Source: an uncultured virus (IMG/VR IMGVR_UViG_2061766007_000545) (Duplodnaviria > Heunggongvirae > Uroviricota > Caudoviricetes). Taken from it: a stretch of DNA of 20,000 nt. Position numbers and translations under genes: made by a program. Shown here in pieces: positions 140 through 20,000 of the stretch (position 1 is the first letter of the stretch; every line of letters starts with the position of its first letter). The stretch is taken from IMG/VR virus record IMGVR_UViG_2061766007_000545. One strand, given 5' to 3'. The notes beneath the pieces were generated by a model. That model was not told the DNA's origin and searched no databases. It worked only from the letters and a program-made list of their open reading frames with translations.

Positions 140-164
140 TTTTTCTTAAAATTTTTGATATAAT
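136..164 (+). promoter_or_regulatory. sigma70/sigmaA-type promoter driving first tRNA/ncRNA block
   Basis: TTGATT-17 nt-TATAAT with extended -10 TG; same architecture recurs five more times. Confidence 0.85.
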
Positions 165-204
165 ATATATAGAAAAGTTGAGAGAGAAATAAAAAAGTTT
201 ATAA

Positions 205-320
205 AAGTTATAGCCTCTGTGACAATTTAGGGTGCTTACGCTATAACTTCTTAAGCGCAAACCTCAAGTTATGCCTAATCTGCTGCTATCGCGCTATATA
301 AACTGAGCAGGAAAAGGCAA
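205..320 (+). ncRNA. candidate structured leader RNA with pseudoknot
   Basis: 10-bp stem AAGTTATAGC(205-214)/GCTATAACTT(240-249); loop GTGCTTA(232-238) can pair with TAAGCGC(252-258); second hairpin TGCCT..CTGCT/AGCAG..AGGCA. Confidence 0.4.
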
Positions 321-323
321 TTC

Positions 324-396
324 GGTTCTATAGTTTAGTTGGTTAAAATACGGCGCTGTCAACGCCGAGTCATGGGTTCAATCCCCATTGGAACCG
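324..396 (+). tRNA. tRNA-Asp(GTC)
   Basis: Acceptor GGTTCTA/TGGAACC, anticodon arm CGGCG-ctGTCaa-CGCCG, T loop TTCAATC, G73. Confidence 0.95.
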
Positions 397-623
397 CGCC
401 CATAGTGGATAGACGGGTTCAGAGATGCCTTAAGGTGTAACTCTATAAAAATACCTTTATTGCAAGGATAACTAGTGCCACCTAGGAAACCTTAGCCGGA
501 GTCAAAACAGGGTTTTTCTCCTTATTAATTCAAGGGCGTACGACGCTGAGAGTGAATTAAGTTAAAGGAGGTTTTCTGATGGCAGCGACTTACGACAACA
601 AAAACAGGCAGAGAAAACTTTTG

Positions 624-697
624 GGGGGTTTAGCTCAGTTGGTTAGAGCGCTTGACTGTTAATCAAGATGTCCTAGGTTCGAGTCCTAGAATCCCCG
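624..697 (+). tRNA. tRNA-Asn(GTT)
   Basis: Acceptor GGGGGTT/AATCCCC, CTTGA-ctGTTaa-TCAAG, TTCGAGT, G73. Confidence 0.96.
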
Positions 698-758
698 TTG
701 AACAAAAACCTCCTAAAGGTTTTTACTAGTAATGTGCTTGCACTACCCTAGGTTTTTT

Positions 759-953
759 GTGAAGGTTGGCGGAGTATGTAGGTGTACGCAGTATAAATTC
801 ATAGTAATTGGATTCTAAAAAGAATTGGGCGCCACGTGGGTGGCTCGGAGAAAGTTAGGACTTCTCTCAATCAACTCTACGGGACTATGATACCTCTCTA
901 TAATGAATACCCGAACCAAGAGGGAGTCGATTAACTCCAACTCTTGCCTTCAC
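759..953 (+). ncRNA. unnamed ~195-nt structured RNA
   Basis: Ends pair GTGAAGG/CCTTCAC; internal TCATAGT/ACTATGA domain with three hairpins; 3' hairpin CAAGAG-GGAGT/ACTCC-CTCTTG; no ORF. Confidence 0.5.
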
Positions 954-956
954 TAT

Positions 957-1028
957 GCACCCATCGTCGAATAGGCAAGACTACTGACTTGTAATCAGTG
1001 TATGGCGGTTCGAGTCCGTCTGGGTGCT
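957..1028 (+). tRNA. tRNA-Thr(TGT)
   Basis: Acceptor GCACCCA/TGGGTGC, ACTGA-ctTGTaa-TCAGT, TTCGAGT. Confidence 0.95.
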
Positions 1029-1035
1029 CTCCCAC

Positions 1036-1392
1036 CACTCGATACTAGTAGGAAAACCGAAGCTTTATTTCGAGTTAATGTGACTCTAGTGGAATCTTAG
1101 GAAAGTCGAGGAACTCGAGGGATATACCCTCCAAGAAGGGTTGAGCCTTCAGCACAGGGGTTTAAGGTCGAAGTGACAATAGTCATATGGTAAGAACCAG
1201 GCATGTAAATGTGCGTTAGTGCGAAAAACCTTAAAGAACCTAACACGCCTCTCAACGATGCGGACCACGTTAGGTCTGGGAATACTGAAAAACGAGAGCA
1301 GTGAGCACACACAGGAATCTCACGCCGTACTAGTCTCCGGTACACGACTATGAGGTGGTAATAGTCCCTCGTCACGATGTGTAGGTATTCCC
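1036..1392 (+). ncRNA. unnamed multibranch structured RNA(s) between tRNA-Thr and tRNA-Glu
   Basis: Nested stems GTTGAG(1140)/CTCAAC(1251), TTTAAGGT(1161)/ACCTTAAA(1228), GGGAATAC(1278)/GTATTCCC(1385) each enclosing short hairpins; GC-richer than coding DNA; no credible ORF. Confidence 0.5.
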
Positions 1393-1399
1393 GTAATTT

Positions 1400-1472
1400 G
1401 TCGCCTTCGTCTAATTGGCTAGGACAGCGCCCTTTCACGGCGCAAACGTGGGTTCAAACCCCATAGGCGGTA
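1400..1472 (+). tRNA. tRNA-Glu(TTC)
   Basis: Acceptor GTCGCCT/AGGCGGT (two G-U), GCGCC-ctTTCac-GGCGC, TTCAAAC. Confidence 0.93.
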
Positions 1473-1475
1473 TAT

Positions 1476-1830
1476 TGGGTAGAAAGATAAACTACCCCTC
1501 CCTTCCGAGGGAAAAGGTCCCTGACATCTTTAAGAGTCGACACTTGAAAGGTGCATACCAAACTTCTTATAATGGGCAAGCGATAGTCCCATATCGTTAA
1601 CGCTTCTAACACGGAAGTAAAAATAGGTAGTTGCTCGTAAGGCAAGCTTCGACAGAAAGGCTGACATGAGGACTCCGCGGATGTCGTGCCGCGGTATAGA
1701 AATGGTTGGACAGTTCTACTAGGGATGACAACTAAAGTAGCAGTATGGAGCATTCTATGTAATGCGGTTGAAATGCTGAAGTAGTTTGCGGTGGTTTTGG
1801 GGCGACATTTATCCACTTGTCAAAAAGAAA
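1476..1830 (+). ncRNA. unnamed ~350-nt structured RNA between tRNA-Glu and tRNA-Pro
   Basis: Nested GTCCCT(1517)/AGGGAT(1721), GAGTC(1534)/GACTC(1671), hairpins GGGTAG/CTACCC, ATGGG/CCCAT, CCGCGG/CCGCGG, TAGAA/TTCTA, AGCATT/AATGCT; boundaries approximate. Confidence 0.45.
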
Positions 1831-1842
1831 GAGCGTTCATCA

Positions 1843-1916
1843 CGAGGGATACGTCAATTGGCTAGACGGCGTGCGTTGGATGCACGAGGTTGCGGGTTCG
1901 AATCCTGCTCCTTCGA
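1843..1916 (+). tRNA. tRNA-Pro(TGG)
   Basis: Acceptor CGAGGGA/TCCTTCG, CGTGC-gtTGGat-GCACG, TTCGAAT, A73. Confidence 0.93.
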
Positions 1917-1925
1917 CTCGAAAAT

Positions 1926-1954
1926 TTGAAAATTTTCGGAATTTTTGGTATACT
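1926..1954 (+). promoter_or_regulatory. sigma70/sigmaA-type promoter
   Basis: TTGAAA-17 nt-TATACT with extended -10 TG. Confidence 0.8.
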
Positions 1955-1978
1955 ATATTTACAAAAGTTAAGAAATAT

Positions 1979-2049
1979 CGCGCTGTGATGTAATGGAAGC
2001 ATACTAGCCTCATACACTAGAAATACGGGTTCAAGTCCCGTTGGCGCAA
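1979..2049 (+). tRNA. tRNA-Met(CAT), initiator-like acceptor stem
   Basis: Acceptor CGCGCTG/TGGCGCA with C1xA72 mismatch, CTAGC-ctCATac-ACTAG, TTCAAGT. Confidence 0.85.
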
Positions 2050-2096
2050 GTCCATTATCTATAGGTGGCGCTGAATACATAAGAAAGGAAAAAGAA

Positions 2097-2453
2097 ATGG
2101 GATATTATACTGATTATTCACTTAAGGTTTATAATGAGAAAGGTCAGTTAATCGATTCAGAAGATAAGGAATTCGAAGAAGTACGTAGAGTCTTTTCTGA
2201 AAAGGTTGAATGGATAGATTCTGATGACCTTAATGCTCTTAATACTGAACACGGAGTTAATTGGAAGTGGTATTCTGCGCGAAGAGATATTGAAGAAATC
2301 GCAAAAGAACTTCCTTCTTATTACTTTATTCTCGAAGGACAGGGAGAAGAGAATGGAGATTGGTGGACTCTTGCTCTTCATGGAACACAAATTTATGAAG
2401 ACGAAGTAGTTGCACCCGCAAATCATTTTGATGATTTTTGGGTTGCTTATTAA
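2097..2453 (+). CDS. acidic phage hypothetical protein embedded in tRNA array
   Basis: 118-aa ORF with RBS AAAGGA; starts MGYYTDYSL, contains WKWY and LEGQGEENGDWW. Confidence 0.88.
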   Translation: MGYYTDYSLKVYNEKGQLIDSEDKEFEEVRRVFSEKVEWIDSDDLNALNTEHGVNWKWYSARRDIEEIAKELPSYYFILEGQGEENGDWWTLALHGTQIYEDEVVAPANHFDDFWVAY

Positions 2454-2530
2454 GTCCTCGTACGCCAATAGGAACCAGACGGCTTGACTACGAATCAACG
2501 CAGATGTGGGTTCGAATCCCTCCGAGGACA
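2454..2530 (+). tRNA. tRNA-Arg(ACG)
   Basis: Acceptor GTCCTCG/CGAGGAC, TTGA-ctACGaa-TCAA, TTCGAAT; single mismatches in D, anticodon and T stems. Confidence 0.88.
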
Positions 2531-2533
2531 TAT

Positions 2534-2619
2534 GCCGCAGTACCTTAGTGGGGAGGAGGGACGGTCTTGAAAACCGTTGACCTTCACGGGTCTGTTAGGT
2601 TCGAATCCTACCTGCGGCG
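2534..2619 (+). tRNA. tRNA-Ser(TGA)
   Basis: Acceptor GCCGCAG/CTGCGGC, ACGGT-ctTGAaa-ACCGT, long variable arm GACC/GGTC, G73. Confidence 0.93.
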
Positions 2620-2623
2620 CTCT

Positions 2624-2712
2624 GTTTGGGTGGCAGAGTCTGGTCGAATGCGGTGGATTGCTAATCCATTGAACATTAAATTGTTCCGAAGGTTCGAATC
2701 CTTTCCCAAACG
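2624..2712 (+). tRNA. tRNA-Ser(GCT)
   Basis: Acceptor GTTTGGG/CCCAAAC, GTGGA-ttGCTaa-TCCAT, long variable arm GAACA/TGTTC, G73. Confidence 0.93.
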
Positions 2713-2784
2713 TTTAAACTAATTTAAAGGAGAACTATGATGAAGCGAAAACATATTCACAAATTAAAATCGAAGAAAATTTAC

Positions 2785-2856
2785 GCGTCCGTGGCAGACA
2801 AGTAATGCACACGACTTTTAATCGTGGATATGTGGGGGCAGTACCCATCGGGCGCA
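2785..2856 (+). tRNA. tRNA-Lys(TTT) with non-canonical D and T loops
   Basis: Acceptor GCGTCCG/CGGGCGC, CACGA-ctTTTaa-TCGTG, T stem GTGGG/CCCAT but loop GGCAGTA. Confidence 0.85.
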
Positions 2857-2860
2857 CTAT

Positions 2861-2934
2861 ACCGATGTAGTTTAACTGGCAAAATAGCTGACTCTTAATC
2901 AGTAAGACTGTGGGTTCAACTCCCACCATCGGTA
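2861..2934 (+). tRNA. tRNA-Lys(CTT)
   Basis: Acceptor ACCGATG/CATCGGT, GCTGA-ctCTTaa-TCAGT, TTCAACT. Confidence 0.94.
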
Positions 2935-2936
2935 CT

Positions 2937-3008
2937 GTGGGAGTGGCAGATAGGTAATGCGCTAGATTGTGGCTCTAGTTTATGCGGGTTCAAATCCCGT
3001 CTCTCACC
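2937..3008 (+). tRNA. tRNA-His(GTG)
   Basis: Acceptor GTGGGAG/CTCTCAC, CTAGA-ttGTGgc-TCTAG, TTCAAAT, C73. Confidence 0.94.
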
Positions 3009-3011
3009 TAT

Positions 3012-3086
3012 ACGAGCATAACTCAGTAGGTAGAGTGTCCGTCTGATACGCGGGAAGTCGGTTGGGTTCAAATCCCCCTGCTCGTA
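3012..3086 (+). tRNA. tRNA-Ile(GAT)
   Basis: Acceptor ACGAGCA/TGCTCGT, TCCGT-ctGATac-GCGGG, TTCAAAT; T stem has 2-nt bulge. Confidence 0.88.
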
Positions 3087-3098
3087 CTTACCGAAAAT

Positions 3099-3127
3099 TT
3101 GATTTTTTCTTAAATTTTTGGTATAAT
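3099..3127 (+). promoter_or_regulatory. sigma70/sigmaA-type promoter upstream of the large ncRNA
   Basis: TTGATT-17 nt-TATAAT with extended -10 TG. Confidence 0.87.
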
Positions 3128-3157
3128 ATATGTATAGAAAATAAGAAAAGAACTTTG

Positions 3158-3752
3158 AAAACTTTATAAAAAGCGTGTTGCAACCTTGTGAAGAGCGTCT
3201 AACCAACGCTGCAAGGGCGCCTCGGAACAGCTGAGGAGTCGTCAGAAGGATACTTCAAAACGGCTCAACTTTCACAGAAATCGAAAGACGAAGTGAGAAG
3301 GAGTAAAACTCCAACAGAGAAGAGGTGGCGCAAGGGCAATATGATTATAAGACACGATTCCGGTTTTCCCAACAATAGACGCCTCGGTGAGGAATAACCC
3401 TATAGACCACATCCGCAAGATGTGAGCCAATGTAGGGAATGCAAAAGCAATGGGAATGCCTCGACACTACGTCAGAAATGGCGTAGAACCGGTTTGCGGT
3501 ACGAGTAGCCTAAGAGGCGTAATATTTCTAAAATAGTTGACATTAATTATTGGGCAAATGTTATTAATCTGAATGGTTGGTGAAAGTTAGGGGTACATGA
3601 ATCCCCTTCGAGACAGTGGTTCCGAAAGGAACTGGGGTAAGAAGTTATACGGCGACGGCTGTATGGCTCAGACTTATCTCCTCGGTGGTCGAATAATAAA
3701 GGTTATTGAGGGAGTATAGCGAAGGCTAGCAATATACTTTTTATAAAGTTTT
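3158..3752 (+). ncRNA. large ornate ncRNA, ROOL-like (GOLLD as alternative)
   Basis: Perfect 16-bp terminal stem AAAACTTTATAAAAAG/CTTTTTATAAAGTTTT enclosing ~560 nt of ORF-free hairpins, several with GNRA loops; own promoter; inside phage tRNA array. Family assignment is from size and context only. Confidence 0.65.
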
Positions 3753-3819
3753 TAAAGAAAAGAAAAGGAGTTAAGTTATGATGAGACGATGGTGTATGGA
3801 GCAGCACATTAAGTAATAT

Positions 3820-3890
3820 GCGGCTCTAGTGTAATGGTAACATGGCGGTCTCCAAAACCGCAGATTAGGGTTCAACTCCCTAGAGTCGTG
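3820..3890 (+). tRNA. tRNA-Trp(CCA)
   Basis: Acceptor GCGGCTC/GAGTCGT, GCGGT-ctCCAaa-ACCGC, TTCAACT, G73. Confidence 0.94.
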
Positions 3891-3894
3891 CTTC

Positions 3895-3968
3895 GGCATT
3901 GTACTCAAGTGGATTAAGAGGCGGGGCTGCAACCTCCGTAGTCGTTGGTTCGAATCCAACCAATGCCT
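3895..3968 (+). tRNA. tRNA-Cys(GCA)
   Basis: Acceptor GGCATTG/CAATGCC, CGGGG-ctGCAac-CTCCG, TTCGAAT, U73. Confidence 0.95.
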
Positions 3969-3982
3969 CTTTAATAATATAT

Positions 3983-4055
3983 GCCCCGATAGTCGAACGG
4001 CATAGACGCTTGTCTTAGGAACAAGTATTTGGGGGTTCAAATCCCTCTCGGGGTA
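3983..4055 (+). tRNA. tRNA-Leu(TAG) with short variable loop
   Basis: Acceptor GCCCCGA/TCGGGGT, CTTGT-ctTAGga-ACAAG, 5-nt variable loop TATTT, TTCAAAT, A73. Confidence 0.9.
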
Positions 4056-4180
4056 CGCCGCGGTAACAAAGGTATATACCTAGGGGTAAAGAGAATAGAG
4101 ATAGTATGGGACGCTCGAGGGACTAACCTCGTTCTGCGCTTTGCCAGAGAATTTAAAGTGCGCAACCCATGCCCCGGCGT
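4056..4180 (+). ncRNA. unnamed ~125-nt structured RNA
   Basis: CGCCG/CGGCG end pairing; GTATGGG(4104)/CCCATGC(4166) closing CGAGG/CCTCG and GCGCTTT/AAAGTGC hairpins. Confidence 0.5.
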
Positions 4181-4222
4181 TTTTGTAGTGGCGCTCGAAG
4201 TAATACACTACGATAGAAGGTT

Positions 4223-4289
4223 AGTCTTATGGTCTAATTGGACAAGGACGCGCAAAAGCGAGGTAGGGGTTCGATTCCCTTTAAGACAA
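4223..4289 (+). ncRNA. tRNA-like RNA with anticodon arm reduced to a 3-bp tetraloop hairpin
   Basis: GTCTTA/TAAGAC acceptor, D arm GTC..TGG..GAC, CGC-AAAA-GCG, T arm AGGGG-TTCGATT-CCCTT. Confidence 0.8.
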
Positions 4290-4315
4290 TTTATTTTATT
4301 TTGGAGGAAAAGAAA

Positions 4316-4651
4316 ATGCCGTTTTCATTTACTACTACAAATTTACTAGATGATATCTTTCTTTCTGCTGATTGTAGACTTGTTGTTCGATCTCAATCTC
4401 GTGTTGAACGATTTAAAAATCTTGTAAAGGTTGTGTTTAAGAATAAGGATAAAAGAATTTTTGGAGTAAAGCTTTCTAATGGCGAAGTAATTACTGTTAA
4501 GTGTGCCGAGAATGATACTTGGGATGAAGAGAAGGCATTGCTTGCATGCTTCGCAAAGTGGGAAGCCGGTAATAATGGTACATTCAATAAGCTCTTTAGC
4601 TTACTTGATAATGTAGTAGATACTTCGAAAGGACAAAAGAAAAATGACTAA
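4316..4651 (+). CDS. phage hypothetical protein
   Basis: RBS GGAGG then ATG 4316 (true start; track start 4238 lies in the tRNA-like gene); VKCAENDTWDEEKALLACFAK segment. Confidence 0.85.
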   Translation: MPFSFTTTNLLDDIFLSADCRLVVRSQSRVERFKNLVKVVFKNKDKRIFGVKLSNGEVITVKCAENDTWDEEKALLACFAKWEAGNNGTFNKLFSLLDNVVDTSKGQKKND

Positions 4652-4778: not shown

Positions 4779-4811
4779 CTAATTTTTGTTTCCTGTTTTT
4801 CTTTTCTTATC

Positions 4812-4845
4812 GGGGTTACTCGATAGAGTAACCCCACCTCTTTTT
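4812..4845 (+). terminator. intrinsic terminator
   Basis: GGGGTTACTC-GATA-GAGTAACCCC hairpin followed by pyrimidine/T run. Confidence 0.7.
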
Positions 4846-4863
4846 CTTAGAAAGGATTCGCTT

Positions 4864-5073
4864 ATGTATAAAATGACAAAAGTAAACTCAAGTGCGATTG
4901 CAGAAATTGGTTATGATAAAGATACGGGTACTTTGAAAATTACTTTTAATAGTGGTTTAGAGTATGAATATCCAAACTTTGAAGAAGCGCAATATAAAGA
5001 ATTTCTTCATGCGCCTTCAATAGGAAAATATTATAATAAGAATATACGCTCAAGCTTCTCAATAAAAAGATAG
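4864..5073 (+). CDS. KTSC domain protein
   Basis: Typical KTSC pattern VNSSAIAEIGYD..TLKITFNSG..YEY..FLHAPSIGKYYNKNIR; RBS AAAGGA before ATG 4864. Confidence 0.92.
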   Translation: MYKMTKVNSSAIAEIGYDKDTGTLKITFNSGLEYEYPNFEEAQYKEFLHAPSIGKYYNKNIRSSFSIKR

Positions 5074-6623: not shown

Positions 6624-8699
6624 ATGGGAAGAAAAGGGATTGGACATATTACGAGTTTTACCGGCGCCGGCGATTTTGCTGACGTCGGTTCAAGTGCGTC
6701 TTTTGTTAAGAATAGTTATATTGTATATCCTCAAGGATTAAATGGACAAAACCCTAACTTAGCTGCTGTTGCGCAAGCTACATTTGTTAAAAATACTATG
6801 TCATATATGTCTGGTAATAAATTAACTGGACTTGACTATTTGTTTTATTTCTTAGAGGACTTGGCACAGAAAGAACGTAAAAAGGAAATAGAGTTTTTTA
6901 GAAAACAACGAGATGTTCTTAAAGCCGATAAAAATAAGTTCTTTAAAGAAACTAACACCTTGCGTGCTATTAATACTATTATTGACCACTTGACCGGTTA
7001 TGGAACTAAAGGGCCGGCAGACGAAACTCTTTCTTCTGCGTTTACTTTATTACTTAATCCACTTGGTTATGATGAAATTAAGAGACAACTTAATAGCATA
7101 CATAATAGTGGTGGCGCGCAACATATGAGTGATTTATATGATGCACTTTGTAGAGATGTATTTAATGAAACTTATGAGAAGTATAAAGACGAGTTTGAAA
7201 AAGAACTCGTTGTTAATGCTAAAAGTGCAAAATTTGAAGATATAGCCGATCCCAAAAAAGTAAATAATTTGGCTAAGAATTTTATAAATAAATTTGTGCA
7301 AGGCGCGCAAAAGAAGTTGCGAAAAGAATTAAATATTCAGGATGACTACCGTAAAGAACTTTTTGATAAATTAAAGGATGCCATGAGAATTAATGGTATC
7401 GTTACTTTTAGTGAAAGAAGTAATGGAACAGTTTGGAATAATGAAAAATGGGACGCTCTTCGTAATGAATACAAACATAAGAGTAAAGAAATGGAAAAAG
7501 ATTCTGAACAAAAGAAACTTGCGGCTCATTTGGTTAATTCTTATGTAAGTAAAACGACTAATAAAAGACAAGAAGCAAAAAGTATTAGGACTATTCTAGA
7601 CCAAATTGTTCAGAATATAATGGGCGATTATTTGTGGCGAGTTGCCGAAGATATGCCTGCCGCGAATAAAGATAAAATAACAAACTATCAAGTTTCAGTT
7701 CATACTGGAGATAAAAATATAGGTCGTCAATCCCTTTTGGATAAAGCCAGTAGTACTAAGGATAATATTGTAACCCATCCGGGCACGGCAACTACCGATA
7801 GTTTTAGTATATTTAGTTTTACTCCTATTGTCCTTGATGGAGAAGGGATAGCTAAGTATTATGAGGGAATTTTAAAAGGTGATGAAAAAGCACTTGAAAA
7901 TTACTTAAAAGAATTCCATAAAGAATTAGAGACTGACGAGGCGCGCCATGAAGTTCTAAAGAATCTTTTTGTTGTTCATTTTAACACAAAAGGTTATAAG
8001 TCTCAGAATAACTTAGCGGCTGTTAATAATAGAAATTTAGATAGTTTAATGGGTACTTTTAAAGATATATCCCAAGCTTTTTATGACATTAGTGGTACTT
8101 CTAAGGGTAGAGCCGTTTATCGTAATGAACATTTGGGATTAATGTTTGACGATCTTATCTTTATGCTTAATAATACAGTAAAAGGTGCTGCCTTTGAAGA
8201 TAATCGTAAAATGGTAGAGTCTCTTATAAGTTATAATTGCTGTACTTGGATGTGGGATGGCTTAACTACCGATATTAAGAATATAGATAAAGAATTAAAT
8301 GGTGTAAGAAATATTCATGTTTTCCAAAGTGGAGGCGCATACTTTACTATTTCTGATCTTCTGATGGAGATAGTAAAACTCTTTAGAGGTTATTTTCTTG
8401 GCTCTGACCTTGAGTCTTTTGTTCAAACCACTTTAAAGCCTGCTTCTTTTAATGCTGAAGAAGAGTACAAAAGATTAACAAGTTATTATCCTATTGATAC
8501 TAAGAAGTTTAAAAAGACCGATAATGGTAAGATGAAGAGAGAGAAACTTAGCTATGAAGAGAAGCAAGAGCAACTAAAAAAACGATGGATGGAAATGCGT
8601 AATTTAGGTCTTAATGGTACTACCTTATCTATCCATTTTCGTCAAAAAAAGATTGATGAATTACTTGGAAGATTATCTATGTTACGTAAGCTTCAATAA
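6624..8699 (+). CDS. large hypothetical protein (691 aa)
   Basis: Long ORF with RBS AAGGAG; no family recognised. Confidence 0.9.
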   Translation: MGRKGIGHITSFTGAGDFADVGSSASFVKNSYIVYPQGLNGQNPNLAAVAQATFVKNTMSYMSGNKLTGLDYLFYFLEDLAQKERKKEIEFFRKQRDVLKADKNKFFKETNTLRAINTIIDHLTGYGTKGPADETLSSAFTLLLNPLGYDEIKRQLNSIHNSGGAQHMSDLYDALCRDVFNETYEKYKDEFEKELVVNAKSAKFEDIADPKKVNNLAKNFINKFVQGAQKKLRKELNIQDDYRKELFDKLKDAMRINGIVTFSERSNGTVWNNEKWDALRNEYKHKSKEMEKDSEQKKLAAHLVNSYVSKTTNKRQEAKSIRTILDQIVQNIMGDYLWRVAEDMPAANKDKITNYQVSVHTGDKNIGRQSLLDKASSTKDNIVTHPGTATTDSFSIFSFTPIVLDGEGIAKYYEGILKGDEKALENYLKEFHKELETDEARHEVLKNLFVVHFNTKGYKSQNNLAAVNNRNLDSLMGTFKDISQAFYDISGTSKGRAVYRNEHLGLMFDDLIFMLNNTVKGAAFEDNRKMVESLISYNCCTWMWDGLTTDIKNIDKELNGVRNIHVFQSGGAYFTISDLLMEIVKLFRGYFLGSDLESFVQTTLKPASFNAEEEYKRLTSYYPIDTKKFKKTDNGKMKREKLSYEEKQEQLKKRWMEMRNLGLNGTTLSIHFRQKKIDELLGRLSMLRKLQ

Positions 8700-9712: not shown

Positions 9713-10189
9713 ATGGCTACTGTATATATGCTTATTGGAATTTCAGGATGTGGAAAGTCGACGATGGCACGCAAACTTAATGTCATGGGAGAAGGGAAAG
9801 TTGGTATTGTCTCTTCTGATGATATTAGAGAAGAGCTTTATGGTGATGCCTCGGTACAGAATAACCCTAAAAAAGTCTTTGAAATTGTGCATAAGCGGAT
9901 TAAAGGACTGCTTGACGAAGGATATGATGTAGTCTTTGATGCGACGAATCTTACAAAGAAGAATCGTAAGTCGTTTTTCTCTTTTTTAGATAAAGAAAAT
10001 TTGCGCGACAAGGTAGATGTTATTGGTTGTGTATGTAACGTTGATATTGAAACCTGCGTAAAGCGTCAGGCACTGCGCGCAAGAAAAGTACCAAAAGAAG
10101 TTATAGAGCGTCAGTCGTTGCAGTATGAAAAGCCTGAGATTAGCGAAGGGTTTTATGCGATTGCTGATTTTACAGAAAGGGAGAATTAA
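9713..10189 (+). CDS. polynucleotide kinase-like P-loop protein (AAA_33)
   Basis: Walker A GISGCGKS, SSDDIR, DATN, lid RQALRAR as in T4 Pnk-type kinase domains. Confidence 0.9.
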   Translation: MATVYMLIGISGCGKSTMARKLNVMGEGKVGIVSSDDIREELYGDASVQNNPKKVFEIVHKRIKGLLDEGYDVVFDATNLTKKNRKSFFSFLDKENLRDKVDVIGCVCNVDIETCVKRQALRARKVPKEVIERQSLQYEKPEISEGFYAIADFTEREN

Positions 10190-10190
10190 A

Positions 10191-10748
10191 ATGATATGGT
10201 TTAGTTCCGATCCGCATTTTTGTCACCAGAAAGACTTTCTTTGGGGACCTCGTGGATATGCGGATCAGTATGAAATGAATAGAGATATTATAAAGAATTG
10301 GAATGAACAAGTTCAGCCGAATGATGATGTATATCTTCTTGGAGATATAATGCTTAATGATAATGAGGAAGGACTTAAGTGTCTAAAAGCGCTGAAGGGA
10401 CGGATTCATATAGTACTTGGGAATCATGACTCTAAGGCAAGAGCAGAACTATATAGGTCTTGTCGTAATGTAGTGGAAGTAGAAAGAGCTATTCCACTTA
10501 AGGCAGAAGGATATACTTTTTATCTTACTCATTATCCAACTCTTACCGATAATTTTGATGAAGAGAATCATAAACCACTAGAAAATCGAGTAATAAATCT
10601 TTGTGGACATTCGCATACTAAGGATAAGTTTAAGGATATGAATAAAGGACTTATTTATCATGTAGAATTTGATGCTCACGATAATGCGCCTGTTGATATT
10701 AAGACGGTTATTTATGATATTAAAAAGTATATTGAAAGGAAAAGATAA
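10191..10748 (+). CDS. calcineurin-like metallophosphoesterase
   Basis: SDPH, LGD, GNHD, THYP, GHSH motifs; start MIWF at 10191. Confidence 0.92.
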   Translation: MIWFSSDPHFCHQKDFLWGPRGYADQYEMNRDIIKNWNEQVQPNDDVYLLGDIMLNDNEEGLKCLKALKGRIHIVLGNHDSKARAELYRSCRNVVEVERAIPLKAEGYTFYLTHYPTLTDNFDEENHKPLENRVINLCGHSHTKDKFKDMNKGLIYHVEFDAHDNAPVDIKTVIYDIKKYIERKR

Positions 10749-11200: not shown

Positions 11201-11227
11201 GACTTTTTAAGAAATTTTTGGTATAAT
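11199..11227 (+). promoter_or_regulatory. sigma70/sigmaA-type promoter
   Basis: TTGACT-17 nt-TATAAT with extended -10 TG. Confidence 0.88.
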
Positions 11228-11258
11228 ATTTTTAGAAAATAGGAAAAGAGGATTTTTT

Positions 11259-11805: not shown

Positions 11806-12636
11806 ATGTTTAAGAAAATTTTTCTAACCGGTGACTATCACGCAGAAGTGCAATCTTTTGAGCGGTTTAGAGAGTTTGAGTTTCCTAAATATAATCTCGA
11901 GCCGAAGGATGTTGCGATTATTCAGCTTGGAGACTTTGGAATGAATATGGTTAAGGGTTGTGGACATCCTGTGGTAGAGGCATATTTTGAGAAGGAGAAG
12001 CAAAAGCTCGAAGATAGTGGATTTACTTTCTTCGTAATTCGCGGCAATCATGACCAGCGTCCATCTAACTTGTTTAATAGCGAAGAGTGGCGCTTTGAGA
12101 CTATGTTTGATGGTCCGACCTATGTGGAGAAGAAGTATCCTCATATCCACTATGCGATGGATTATCCATGGGTATACAACATTAATGAATATAAGACACT
12201 CGTACTCCCCGGCGCACATAGTGTAGATAAAGCTCGTCGTTTATATGAAGAGCATATTGGTGGTATTAAGACTTGGTTTGAGGATGAGGCTATGACCAAT
12301 TCTGAGATGGATTATGCACTAAGTCTTGTACGCCAAAATAATGCAACCTTTGACCTTATCCTTAGCCATACTTGCCCTTGGTCTTTTATTCCTCGTTTCT
12401 CCATTAATCAGGGGCCGCACCTTAGCGTAGATATGGAAAGATTGTTTGAGCAGATTCTTCGTGAAGTTGAGGAAAATGGAAAGTATGGTGGATGGGTATG
12501 GGCGCATCATCATACTAACGCTCTTTATGAGAAGCCAGATGGAGGGTACAATATGGTTCTTTATGAACTACACGTACCATTGGATGATTATATTGAGAAT
12601 AAAGGACGGGTTGAGAATTTTGTTATTCTCTACTAA
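11806..12636 (+). CDS. calcineurin-like metallophosphoesterase (second family)
   Basis: TGDYH, LGDFG, RGNHD, GAHSVDK, SHTCP, AHHH motifs. Confidence 0.92.
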   Translation: MFKKIFLTGDYHAEVQSFERFREFEFPKYNLEPKDVAIIQLGDFGMNMVKGCGHPVVEAYFEKEKQKLEDSGFTFFVIRGNHDQRPSNLFNSEEWRFETMFDGPTYVEKKYPHIHYAMDYPWVYNINEYKTLVLPGAHSVDKARRLYEEHIGGIKTWFEDEAMTNSEMDYALSLVRQNNATFDLILSHTCPWSFIPRFSINQGPHLSVDMERLFEQILREVEENGKYGGWVWAHHHTNALYEKPDGGYNMVLYELHVPLDDYIENKGRVENFVILY

Positions 12637-18437: not shown

Positions 18438-18589
18438 AGGGCAACCCACAGAAGAAGGTCTTTCAAGATAATTTCATAAAGCATTGGGTTAAATCCTCTC
18501 ACAATCATCCTGAAGGCTGGCGATGGTGGAAGCGCAAGAATCGTAAAGACGCGAGAAGAAAACTAAAAGCGGAGGAAAACGAAGAATGA
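18434..18589 (+). CDS. small basic Trp-rich protein (copy 2)
   Basis: MKGNPQKKVFQDNFIKHWVKSSHNHPEGWRWWKRKNRKDARRKLKAEENEE. Confidence 0.75.
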   Translation: MKGNPQKKVFQDNFIKHWVKSSHNHPEGWRWWKRKNRKDARRKLKAEENEE

Positions 18590-18872
18590 CTAATTTTGAA
18601 TATATTGTGAATAATAATACAGAAGCAAGAGAATTAATATTGGATACTTTCTGTAAAGCCTTCAACGACTGTTTAGGATGTCCTTGTTATGATAATAAAG
18701 GTAATTGTAACATGGATAAAGAAACAGTAATTAATTGGTTTTTAGGTGAATATGATCCTTTTGGCTATATTCTAAATAAATTAAAGAAAGGATACCCTCA
18801 GGTTGAGCGGAAAATTCAAGAATTTAAAAAGGCTTTTATTGATTGCTCTTATTTTACCCATAACACAGAACC
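18586..18872 (+). CDS. Cys-containing hypothetical protein, truncated by gap
   Basis: MTNFEYIVNN..CLGCPC..INWF open into the N run. Confidence 0.72.
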
Positions 18873-19664
18873 NNNNNNNNNNNNNNNNNNNNNNNNNNNN
18901 NNNNNNNNNNNNNNNNNNNNNNNNNNNNNNNNNNNNNNNNNNNNNNNNNNNNNNNNNNNNNNNNNNNNNNNNNNNNNNNNNNNNNNNNNNNNNNNNNNNN
19001 NNNNNNNNNNNNNNNNNNNNNNNNNNNNNNNNNNNNNNNNNNNNNNNNNNNNNNNNNNNNNNNNNNNNNNNNNNNNNNNNNNNNNNNNNNNNNNNNNNNN
19101 NNNNNNNNNNNNNNNNNNNNNNNNNNNNNNNNNNNNNNNNNNNNNNNNNNNNNNNNNNNNNNNNNNNNNNNNNNNNNNNNNNNNNNNNNNNNNNNNNNNN
19201 NNNNNNNNNNNNNNNNNNNNNNNNNNNNNNNNNNNNNNNNNNNNNNNNNNNNNNNNNNNNNNNNNNNNNNNNNNNNNNNNNNNNNNNNNNNNNNNNNNNN
19301 NNNNNNNNNNNNNNNNNNNNNNNNNNNNNNNNNNNNNNNNNNNNNNNNNNNNNNNNNNNNNNNNNNNNNNNNNNNNNNNNNNNNNNNNNNNNNNNNNNNN
19401 NNNNNNNNNNNNNNNNNNNNNNNNNNNNNNNNNNNNNNNNNNNNNNNNNNNNNNNNNNNNNNNNNNNNNNNNNNNNNNNNNNNNNNNNNNNNNNNNNNNN
19501 NNNNNNNNNNNNNNNNNNNNNNNNNNNNNNNNNNNNNNNNNNNNNNNNNNNNNNNNNNNNNNNNNNNNNNNNNNNNNNNNNNNNNNNNNNNNNNNNNNNN
19601 NNNNNNNNNNNNNNNNNNNNNNNNNNNNNNNNNNNNNNNNNNNNNNNNNNNNNNNNNNNNNNNN
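18873..19664. other. assembly gap (N run)
   Basis: Continuous N bases. Confidence 0.99.
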
Positions 19665-19665
19665 G

Positions 19666-20000
19666 GTTGGACGCTGGCTTGCAAAGAGAGAGTGGGGACG
19701 AAAGTTAATTACTTTCTTCCTTTACTCGAAGAAAAAGCAGACCGGTACTGATTGGCCCGTAGGTAGATTCCCTGGTGTCAGCAAGACCGATCAGGAGAGA
19801 TGTGAGAATATGACTTGGGTTCTTAATGATAAGACTCCATTTATTCGTACTCAGAAGTGCGACGGTTCTTCGGGTACTTTTATCCTTGAGCGGAAGAAGC
19901 GCGGTAAGTACGAGTTTTATGTGTGCTCGCGCAATGTAAGAATGCTTAAGCCTGAGCAGACTTGCTTCTATGGGGATAAGAATTACTACTGGGATGCCGC
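19666..20000 (+). CDS. ATP-dependent RNA ligase (Rnl2/DRB0094-like), internal fragment
   Basis: Open frame ..FPGVSKTDQERCEN..TQKCDGSSGTF..FYVCSRN..: nucleotidyltransferase motif I KxDG, motif Ia SRN and the upstream KTDxER segment. Confidence 0.88.

Follow-up and report, generated by a model that had tools for sequence, protein, structure and literature searches.

An orphan abiF-type RNA hairpin in the tRNA gene island of a rumen phage suggests a tRNA-processed AbiF antitoxin decoy

AbiF is a widespread abortive-infection toxin, a HEPN RNase (Pfam Abi_2) whose RNA antitoxin is the abiF motif; for C. difficile this RNA is reported to neutralise the toxin in trans through direct binding (bioRxiv 10.1101/2025.04.15.648962). 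An AbiF-RNA complex is reported to have been solved, and Cas13 is described as a descendant of AbiF (PMC12737573, PMC13064643). In this work we analyse a stretch of 20,000 nucleotides from an uncultured member of the Caudoviricetes (IMG/VR record IMGVR_UViG_2061766007_000545), hereafter the window, whose first 4.3 kb form an RNA gene island on one strand (+) in a phage-like gene setting. The island holds tRNA genes, a ROOL RNA and, within one of its long spacers, an orphan hairpin of the abiF type. We propose, with a probability of roughly 0.6, that the region is a tRNA-processed counter-defence cassette of a large rumen phage, predicted to deliver an AbiF antitoxin decoy. Bovine gut metagenome runs contain the window DNA in full.

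Several elements of this arrangement have precedents. The cos-site hairpin of phage sk1 is reported to inhibit AbiF (Rince 2000 and Zilberzwige-Tal 2025, both cited through PMC13064643), and the pseudo-ToxI of phage PhiTE is reported to be an RNA mimic of the ToxI antitoxin of the ToxIN system (PMC3475682). An abiF small RNA is listed as an Rfam match in the lytic cyanophage S-CREM1, for which the accessible text of that report offers no anti-defence role (PMC9964418). The 2017 description of the ROOL RNA family drew on data from cow rumen and already placed these RNAs close to tRNAs and in phages (PMC5737381). Another ROOL member was seen by cryo-EM as a homo-octameric RNA-only cage of unknown function, and GOLLD RNAs are reported to carry tRNAs in their linker (both bioRxiv 10.1101/2024.12.08.627333). 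The association of ROOL with phage tRNA islands is already published (PMC5737381; bioRxiv 10.1101/2024.12.08.627333).

The window hairpin lies at 1239-1275 (+), in a 369-nt spacer (1030-1398) between tRNA-Thr and tRNA-Glu, and comprises a 6-bp P1, a 3-bp P2 and the invariant loop CUCUCAACGAU. The abiF model (RF03085) scores it at 34.7 bits, with E = 9.9e-5 when the spacer is searched and E = 0.0013 when 4.7 kb are searched. Both stems are formed, the outer one with an internal loop and 6 of 6 pairs, and the 11-nt loop, closed by G-C and C-G pairs, equals the consensus. The exact 15-mer that contains this loop occurs once in the window, where no second or degenerate abiF loop was found at up to 3 mismatches.

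When 45 nt were compared, the window hairpin differed from one allele at 4 positions, namely a compensatory change of a C-G to a U-A stem pair and 2 bases of the 3' tail. This allele, the commonest one, occurs in the viral locus L099 and in 22 loci of bacteria, most of them Lachnospiraceae. The 16 of these 22 loci that have titles include Roseburia, Coprococcus, Acetatifactor, Lachnobacterium, Eisenbergiella and Lachnospiraceae metagenome-assembled genomes from goat, roe deer and buffalo guts; the named genera we take to belong to one family, the Lachnospiraceae. Three genomes with the allele match window positions 1231-1277 at 94-95%, and their matches to the rest of 171-1842 are tRNAs only. 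Of the 101 genomes sampled from this putative host family, 33 have Abi_2 above the cut-off, often in several copies. With the described motif (abiF motif, AbiFr or RCd22), the window copy shares the loop, the two stems and the flanking AGAACC...GGUC of the Lachnospiraceae alleles that precede Abi_2. Examples of Abi_2 ORFs downstream of the matching allele are those of loci L186 and L208. It differs in having no toxin gene, in standing in the tRNA operon of a lytic-type phage and not in a 5' untranslated region, and in being a single motif. No Abi_2 was found among the 28 window open reading frames (ORFs) tested or among 31 spacer frames, and what follows the hairpin is tRNA-Glu.

The orphan state of the window hairpin recurs in viral contigs. 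The 15-mer loop core was found in at least 117 viral contigs, 109 of them with 5 or 6 of the 6 outer-stem pairs. An alignment of 81 distinct viral hairpins was built, leaving out 8 stemless loci, rows identical over 45 nt and 2 loci cut by the contig end. The 15-mer is invariant in all 81 by the selection of the loci, and the stems around it covary: 87.9% of the cells are paired, a value reached by 0 of 500 shuffles, compared with 70.0% in shuffles, and 142 cells changed on both sides compared with 46.6 in shuffles, with slid controls 31-47% paired. The first downstream ORF has an Abi_2 match in 2 of 67 viral contigs compared with 33 of 67 bacterial genomes. The viral test considered ORFs of at least 80 aa (67 of 77 candidates, with 4 stemless loci, 1 distant ORF and 5 cut ORFs left out), and the bacterial test ORFs of at least 100 aa (67 of 72, with 5 cut ORFs left out).

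The viral hairpins are also linked to tRNAs. A same-strand tRNA lies within 50 nt in 23 of the 109 viral hairpin loci and within 300 nt in 30; for the 120 bacterial loci the corresponding counts are 0 and 3. In the 34 viral loci that hold any tRNA, the nearest tRNAs are all on the strand of the hairpin. Some junctions are immediate, with the tRNA starting at the hairpin's last base in two loci (L083, L025) and ending 8 nt ahead of the hairpin in three (L029, L032, L041). This direct abutment in other phages strengthens the proposal, made by an earlier sequence-only reading of the window, that further RNAs are set free when the tRNAs are processed. Five viral records whose hairpin adjoins a tRNA were considered as whole records, and 0 of 5 have an Abi_2 match; three are rated 100% complete, two of these with terminal repeats.

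Other neighbours of these hairpins were recorded as well. In six viral loci, an ORF of about 390 aa without a Pfam family (389-393 aa in L040, L044, L051, L057 and L062; 411 aa in L080) lies 23-89 nt 3' of the hairpin, with tRNAs 150-400 nt upstream, and this ORF may encode an unrecognised partner protein of the abiF motif. Further viral hairpins stand just upstream of packaging genes, either a small terminase (L029, L043) or an HNH endonuclease (L012, L037, L045, L069, L075, L076), a position that recalls the reported protection of the sk1 cos region against AbiF. In two bacterial loci (L170, L189), the hairpin is followed by a gene for RlaP (RNA repair pathway, DNA polymerase beta family) in place of Abi_2.

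A second group of phages carries a different version of the loop. A BLAST search with the hairpin returned 18 records of cultured Bacillus phages, among them phiNIT1, Grass, SBSphiJ5-7 and Goe24, in which the hairpin has the Bacilli version of the loop, CUCUUAACAAU. In phiNIT1, the only record whose annotation was examined, the hairpin lies in an unannotated, G+C-rich 1-kb gap of the tRNA island, with tRNA-Asn and a small ORF on one side and tRNA-Gln/Asp on the other (gap at 2340-3575 of locus L272, abiF-like hairpin at 2501-2539, about 34364-34402 of phiNIT1). The same gap contains a skipping-rope RNA (RF02924, 46.8 bits) that ends 2 nt before tRNA-Gln. The Rfam search (E up to 1) misses the phiNIT1 hairpin because of the two loop substitutions that give CUCUUAACAAU. 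On the bacterial side, 16 of the 401 genomes sampled from the class to which an Alicyclobacillus genome belongs have this variant, compared with 1 of 401 for a reversed control; in 5 of the 6 loci fetched, the hairpin lies 25-45 nt upstream of an Abi_2 gene, and the sixth is stemless. In these sequences, the phage copies follow the antitoxin variant of the host clade, which is what a mimic predicts and a generic structural element does not.

The island that surrounds the window hairpin is organised around tRNAs. ARAGORN finds 15 of them between 324 and 4056, all on the + strand, and the Rfam tRNA model adds two tRNA-like elements, 2785-2856 (43.4 bits) and 4223-4289 (37.6 bits), which brings the total to 17 tRNA or tRNA-like units; ARAGORN makes no call for the two additions, even when relaxed. 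Neighbouring tRNAs stand 1-13 nt apart or are separated by long gaps (150-590 nt). The long gaps are 171-323, 398-623, 698-956, 1030-1398 and 1474-1842 (spacers 0 to 4), 3160-3747 (ROOL) and 4057-4222 (spacer 6), so that the hairpin is in spacer 3. A 49-nt promoter region with an extended -10 box is present in three + strand copies, at 135-183 (TTGATT, 17 nt, TG-n-TATAAT), 1925-1973 and 3098-3146, the last directly upstream of ROOL. The 19-mer at its core matches 4 times in the 20-kb stretch of the window compared with 0.04 expected, and 0 of 200 shuffles reach 4; the fourth copy, at 11213-11231, is distant from all tRNAs. Promoter-like stretches akin to those of the island recur in the loci of relatives. 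A transcript with five tRNAs and spacers 0-4 likely starts at copy 1. Between the island units, no convincing terminator was found on the + strand. We infer that the island is co-transcribed and cut at the tRNA borders. The tRNAs called by ARAGORN and Rfam and the promoter repeats support the tRNA island, the three promoters and the long non-coding spacers of the sequence-only reading, whose spacer coordinates are correct within a few bases.

The longest spacer is a ROOL RNA (RF03087), a family already described. The match at 3160-3747 (+) covers the whole model (1-574 of 574) with 292.4 bits, compared with a gathering score of 99.1, and E = 1.3e-66; the closing helix reaches an inverted repeat, 3153-3181 / 3729-3757, which extends the element to 3153-3757. 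Its minimum free energy is -189 kcal/mol compared with -150.9 +/- 6.2 in shuffles (z -6.17), and 0 of 100 shuffles are as stable. A chance-level match to JA02 (E 1.6) that overlaps the promoter and the beginning of ROOL (3095-3211) was rejected. ROOL stands between tRNA-Ile and tRNA-Trp, in a setting of phage genes. Relatives of the phage were sought via PhoH, which gave 4 viral and 17 metagenome loci (21 in all), the closest of which (88-90% PhoH identity) end before the island; one of the 21, L001, has a ROOL behind the same promoter type. RNA-library contigs from three studies were also compared with the island; such contigs cannot show ends, strand, linkage or level, and DNA carry-over is possible. 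Nearly identical contigs from 2 studies cover ROOL at 3247-3714 (1 difference, depth 79), 3204-3363 and 3329-3517. In comparison with the family, the window copy is likewise full-length and located in the tRNA island of a rumen phage; it has its own island promoter and a closing helix longer than the model, and nothing else about it stands out.

Under the proposed scheme, the three copies of one strong promoter would yield polycistronic RNA precursors in which the 17 tRNA or tRNA-like units serve as cleavage signals for the host RNase P and 3' processing enzymes, setting free the RNA between them. Freed ROOL would assemble into its cage. The abiF hairpin would be made early and in quantity, and would bind the host AbiF dimer in place of the host antitoxin RNA, so that the RNase is held inactive during infection. 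The labile antitoxin supply of the host would fail in infection, and substitution by the phage hairpin would prevent abortive infection. Binding and neutralisation of AbiF by the phage hairpin are predictions from its likeness to the host antitoxin. The tRNAs, together with a downstream kinase, phosphoesterases and RNA ligase, may serve the same theme of withstanding host defences that target RNA.

Compared with PhiTE pseudo-ToxI, both are phage-borne copies of host RNA antitoxins, and by analogy the window copy is proposed to neutralise a type III toxin. The toxin is ToxN there and the HEPN protein AbiF here, and the RNA is a repeat array there and a hairpin here; pseudo-ToxI comes from a laboratory escape mutant, whereas the arrangement seen here is natural, widespread and linked to tRNAs. 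The sk1 and window elements are both phage nucleic-acid hairpins against AbiF, by prediction in the case of the window; the sk1 hairpin is said to be unlike the AbiF non-coding RNA, whereas that of the window is a near-copy. S-CREM1 shares an abiF-motif RNA in a tRNA-rich lytic phage, and the accessible text of its report describes neither a tRNA linkage nor host matching. The tRNA gene cluster of phage T4 includes two small stable RNAs. Like that cluster and GOLLD, the island would hold stable RNAs other than tRNAs that are transcribed together with the phage tRNAs and set free as these are processed; the T4 and GOLLD RNAs have no known function or antitoxin link. In a literature search whose coverage was possibly incomplete (the primary AbiF-Cas13 paper and the 2017 motif supplement were not covered), no report of host-matched AbiF antitoxin copies in phage tRNA operons was found, S-CREM1 and sk1 being the nearest.

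A number of observations weigh against the proposed decoy. The score of the window hairpin, 34.7 bits, is below the Rfam gathering score of 37. The hairpin is not adjacent to a tRNA: 209 nt separate it from tRNA-Thr upstream and 123 nt from tRNA-Glu downstream, and with this position in mid-spacer tRNA processing would leave it inside a 369-nt RNA, barring other cuts. The motif is present once, whereas C. difficile RCd22 is reported to need two (bioRxiv 10.1101/2025.04.15.648962). No RNA-library contig was shown over it, although missing cover proves nothing. Its exact loop occurs in 0 of the 21 PhoH-relative loci, and abiF reaches its gathering score in 0 of the 13 scanned with Rfam; given this absence, the hairpin is not a conserved trait of the sampled phage lineage. 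The lack of a toxin gene holds for the 20-kb window, and an AbiF gene may lie elsewhere in the phage, while the host family, Lachnospiraceae, is itself a prediction. As for the census, the viral loci were seeded with a 15-mer and the bacterial ones with a subfamily 24-mer, the ORF limits were 80 and 100 aa, and about a third of the loci in each census had 300-nt flanks only. Moreover, 14 of the 23 tRNA-adjacent viral cases form one tRNA-Arg group, which brings the independent events nearer to 8-10.

Apart from ROOL and the hairpin, the long spacers (0, 1, 2, 4, 6 and the rest of 3) are best regarded as transcribed non-coding RNA, and that any of them is functional is a minority chance. One explanation, to which we give appreciable weight short of an even chance, is that they are functionless transcribed filler, possibly the decayed remains of earlier genes, such as the homing-endonuclease or RNA genes often found in phage tRNA regions, that persist within essential tRNA operons. 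Composition argues against plain junk of this kind. The G+C of spacers 1-4 and 6 is 0.42-0.49 (0.42 in spacers 1 and 2, 0.45 in spacer 4 and 0.49 in spacer 6), which resembles ROOL (0.44), whereas neutral DNA in a genome of 36% G+C should drift AT-rich; the 27 ORFs average 0.35, the 11 other intergenic gaps range over 0.23-0.40, and spacer 0, the leader ahead of tRNA-Asp, has 0.37. The statement of the sequence-only reading that the spacers are richer in G+C is therefore right for five of them and for ROOL.

Also against filler, no trace of a protein family was seen in any frame. Under code 11 or with TAG recoded, no + strand spacer frame exceeds 58 codons; with TGA or TAA recoded, frames of up to 72 or 67 codons appear in spacer 3, and no + strand frame spans a spacer. 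The 31 open frames of at least 28 codons from the spacers, taken on both strands, gave no convincing Pfam or PHROG match, the best having E = 0.006 over 31 residues. These results agree with the earlier description of the spacers as ORF-free. The long minus-strand frames at 1097-1438 and 1454-1816 are not taken as coding, in view of their implausible translations and the lack of a convincing family match; they are attributed to the A-rich + strand. No tandem repeats of the ToxI kind were found.

Folding, by contrast, favours filler over conserved structured RNAs. Measured against dinucleotide shuffles, the z values are -0.50 for spacer 0, -0.12 for spacer 1, -0.82 for spacer 2, +0.44 for the whole of spacer 3, -0.10 for spacer 4 (369 nt) and -0.87 for spacer 6; the sub-stretches represented in RNA libraries give -0.40 and -0.67. 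At the start of spacer 2 (704-757) there are A/U-rich hairpins with U runs after them. The spacers had been called heavily base-paired, a description that fits only 3160-3747 (z -6.17) and not the other six (z +0.44 to -0.87). An Rfam scan of the spacers with E up to 10 recovered ROOL and, below its gathering score, the abiF motif; the rest had no convincing match, and v-snoRNA-1 at 1717-1782 was rejected as chance-level (18.6 bits compared with a cut-off of 75, E 2.4).

The same holds for homologues. In the 21 PhoH-relative loci, neither blastn nor nhmmer found a homologue of spacers 0, 1, 2, 4 or 6, the matches being promoters, tRNAs and ROOL. When 150-4350 was compared with cultured phages by BLAST, 525 records matched, in tRNA pieces only, and 0 covered 80%. 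In the viral collection, a 27-mer of spacer 4 used as a seed found 0 loci; the matches to a 16-mer of spacer 4 (10 loci) and a 17-mer of spacer 1 (3 loci) were discarded as chance, with no extended similarity. Spacers 1, 2, 4 and 6 each matched 0 of 101 genomes of the family of a Roseburia genome, a search without a positive control. In the search of 401 genomes with 171-1842, the 150 matches listed (there are 792 more) involve tRNAs or the hairpin only; 2 candidates per genome were scored, which makes this search blind to weaker spacer matches.

Divergence among close relatives points the same way. Relatives of 88-93% identity occur in several bovine-gut runs. In a DNA relative of about 93% identity over 150-672, 1 change falls in tRNA-Asp, and 4 substitutions and one 2-nt deletion are listed for spacer 0; for spacer 1 the differences amount to about 15 substitutions and 11 indels, mainly at 518-569. 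In the relative L001, an ORF of 198 aa takes up an inter-tRNA position at which the window has spacer only, as filler of former genes would allow. The absence of a folding signal and this fast change argue against conserved structured RNAs, and the conservation that had been expected of the spacers did not appear: spacers 0, 1, 2, 4 and 6 have no homologue in the 21 loci, and spacer 1 diverges far more than tRNA-Asp.

Presence in RNA libraries, on the other hand, counts against filler. Spacer 1 is represented by an exact 186-nt contig over 414-599 (depth 21.5, 1 study), and spacer 4 by a 274-nt contig of a relative of about 89% identity over 1506-1740 (18 substitutions, 7 gaps; 1 study), with depths comparable to those of parts of ROOL in the same kind of data. 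The stability of the spacer RNAs, anticipated by the sequence-only reading, is thus weakly borne out, with contigs for ROOL, for spacer 1 and for a relative's spacer 4 and none shown over the hairpin.

A separate observation concerns another spacer, from a related human-gut phage clade with a suppressor tRNA(CTA). It is ORF-free, 287 nt long and located between tRNA-Val and tRNA-Leu (L003:4881-5167, equivalent to L004:6545-6831, L134:5897-6183 and L135:5659-5945). It has 2.4% variable columns, compared with 0-1.3% in three flanking tRNAs, 5.1% in the fourth and 18% in the neighbouring spacer, and 4 of 4 changes inside predicted pairs keep the pairing; its z is -1.35, and it has no Rfam match. 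We consider it a candidate new RNA.

A further explanation concerns the abiF hairpin itself, which could be the relic of a captured AbiF cassette that lost its toxin, or else a processing or stability signal or an attenuator in tRNA precursors. The bacterial hairpin is reported to be followed by a U-rich tract and to act partly via premature termination (bioRxiv 10.1101/2025.04.15.648962), and bacteria have orphans too, with 34 of 67 downstream ORFs lacking Abi_2. The window hairpin is moreover single, stands in mid-spacer and is absent in the sampled relatives. Decay, however, should neither keep all 15 loop and P2 bases nor compensate the stem by a double change, and a pure structural signal has no need of an AbiF-specific loop. 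The orphan arrangement is also seen repeatedly, beside different tRNAs and both before and after them, in complete phage genomes that lack Abi_2, and its loop variant tracks the host clade. Hence we consider a relic or a structural signal unlikely.

Least probable of all is the central idea of the sequence-only reading, in which the long spacers are without exception distinct non-coding RNAs, stable and structured, and all of them form an undescribed multi-RNA system freed by tRNA excision: the ROOL-like G+C (0.42-0.49 compared with 0.23-0.40 in intergenic gaps), the absence of a coding signal, the RNA-library contigs for spacer 1 and a relative's spacer 4, the 287-nt gut-phage spacer that is about as conserved as tRNAs, and the phiNIT1 skipping-rope RNA, which abuts a tRNA and shows that tRNA islands host further RNAs, all speak for it, and yet six spacers fold no better than dinucleotide shuffles where ROOL reaches -6.17, Rfam offers no convincing match beyond the abiF hairpin, nhmmer finds nothing in the 21 loci though it recovers ROOL, spacer 1 changes much faster than tRNA-Asp, and 0 of 101 genomes hold spacers 1, 2, 4 or 6. 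What stands of that idea is an island with RNAs in it; the largest spacer, taken to be unnamed, is the known ROOL, another contains the described abiF motif, and most of the other spacers show no sign of conserved structure.

The remaining features of the island are as follows, all on the + strand and, unless stated otherwise, supported by both ARAGORN and Rfam. The transcript from the first promoter would include tRNA-Asp(GTC) at 324-397, tRNA-Asn(GTT) at 624-697, which has up to about 88% identity to tRNA-Asn genes of Lachnospiraceae-family genomes, tRNA-Thr(TGT) at 957-1029, tRNA-Glu(TTC) at 1399-1473 and tRNA-Pro(TGG) at 1843-1917. After the second promoter come tRNA-Met(CAT) at 1978-2050 and an ORF of 118 aa (2097-2453) that matches PHROG 6306, a family of unknown function, and no Pfam family; no relatives of it were found in viral contigs, and no RNA-library contig covers it, although missing cover proves nothing. 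It is followed by tRNA-Arg(ACG), tRNA-Ser(TGA) and tRNA-Ser(GCT) at 2454-2713, with gaps of 2-3 nt, by the Rfam-only tRNA-like element 2785-2856, which has an odd T-loop, and by tRNA-Lys(CTT), tRNA-His(GTG) and tRNA-Ile(GAT) at 2861-3087, with gaps of 1-3 nt. Beyond ROOL lie tRNA-Trp(CCA), tRNA-Cys(GCA) and tRNA-Leu(TAG) at 3820-4056 and the second Rfam-only element, 4223-4289, directly after which the first ORF downstream of the island begins (4316-4651).

Three tiny ORFs with a good Shine-Dalgarno sequence stand just before, or overlap, tRNA or tRNA-like genes: 2737-2805 (22 codons), which overlaps the 5' part of the element 2785-2856, 3778-3816 (12 codons) and 579-662 (27 codons). A 1-nt deletion inside the last of these in the close relative (about 93%) argues against coding. 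The window uses all three stop codons (14 TAA, 8 TGA and 4 TAG). Among the PhoH-defined relatives, L003, L004 and L132 have suppressor tRNAs(CTA) and odd tRNAs with 4-base or 2-base anticodon calls, which hints at stop-codon recoding in their clade. In another relative, L128, a short match to a tmRNA model (65.3 bits, clan tRNA) at 7065-7144 adjoins tRNA-Met and is probably a tRNA-like element.

Downstream of the island, Pfam and PHROG matches identify a KTSC-domain protein (4786-5073), a ClpP-type protease and PhoH. They also identify an RNA-repair-like set, comprising a polynucleotide kinase (AAA_33 / PHROG 505), two metallophosphoesterases and an RNA-ligase PHROG match, at 9713-10748, 11806-12636 and 18586-19998. 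The kinase-ligase pair of phage T4 is an answer to anticodon nucleases, and the set in the window is reminiscent of it.

A ROOL RNA in a phage tRNA island and RNA antitoxin mimicry in the ToxIN system were already known, and the most interesting finding here is the tRNA-linked antitoxin mimic. In a broader and more tentative reading, which we would not yet favour, the tRNA islands of phages serve to deliver RNA counter-defence: lytic phages whose hosts are unrelated (rumen Lachnospiraceae, Bacillus and probably cyanobacteria) would carry host-matched AbiF antitoxin hairpins beside their tRNA genes or among them, RNase P and 3' processing would free the decoy RNA in large amounts to hold AbiF inactive, and other G+C-rich, fast-evolving spacers (spacers 1 and 4, the 1-kb gap of phiNIT1 and the 287-nt gut-phage spacer) might be decoys or inhibitors of yet unknown RNA-regulated defences. 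The decoy idea is directly testable, given that cultured Bacillus subtilis phages (phiNIT1, Grass, SBSphiJ5-7, Goe24) carry an analogous hairpin. Since the antitoxin allele names a host clade, it offers a host-prediction clue for uncultured phages. If the proposed decoy is real, it would be a second, natural and apparently common phage route past AbiF, beside the one that the literature search turned up, the cos-site hairpin of sk1, and it would give a concrete function to the non-tRNA RNAs long seen in phage tRNA clusters.

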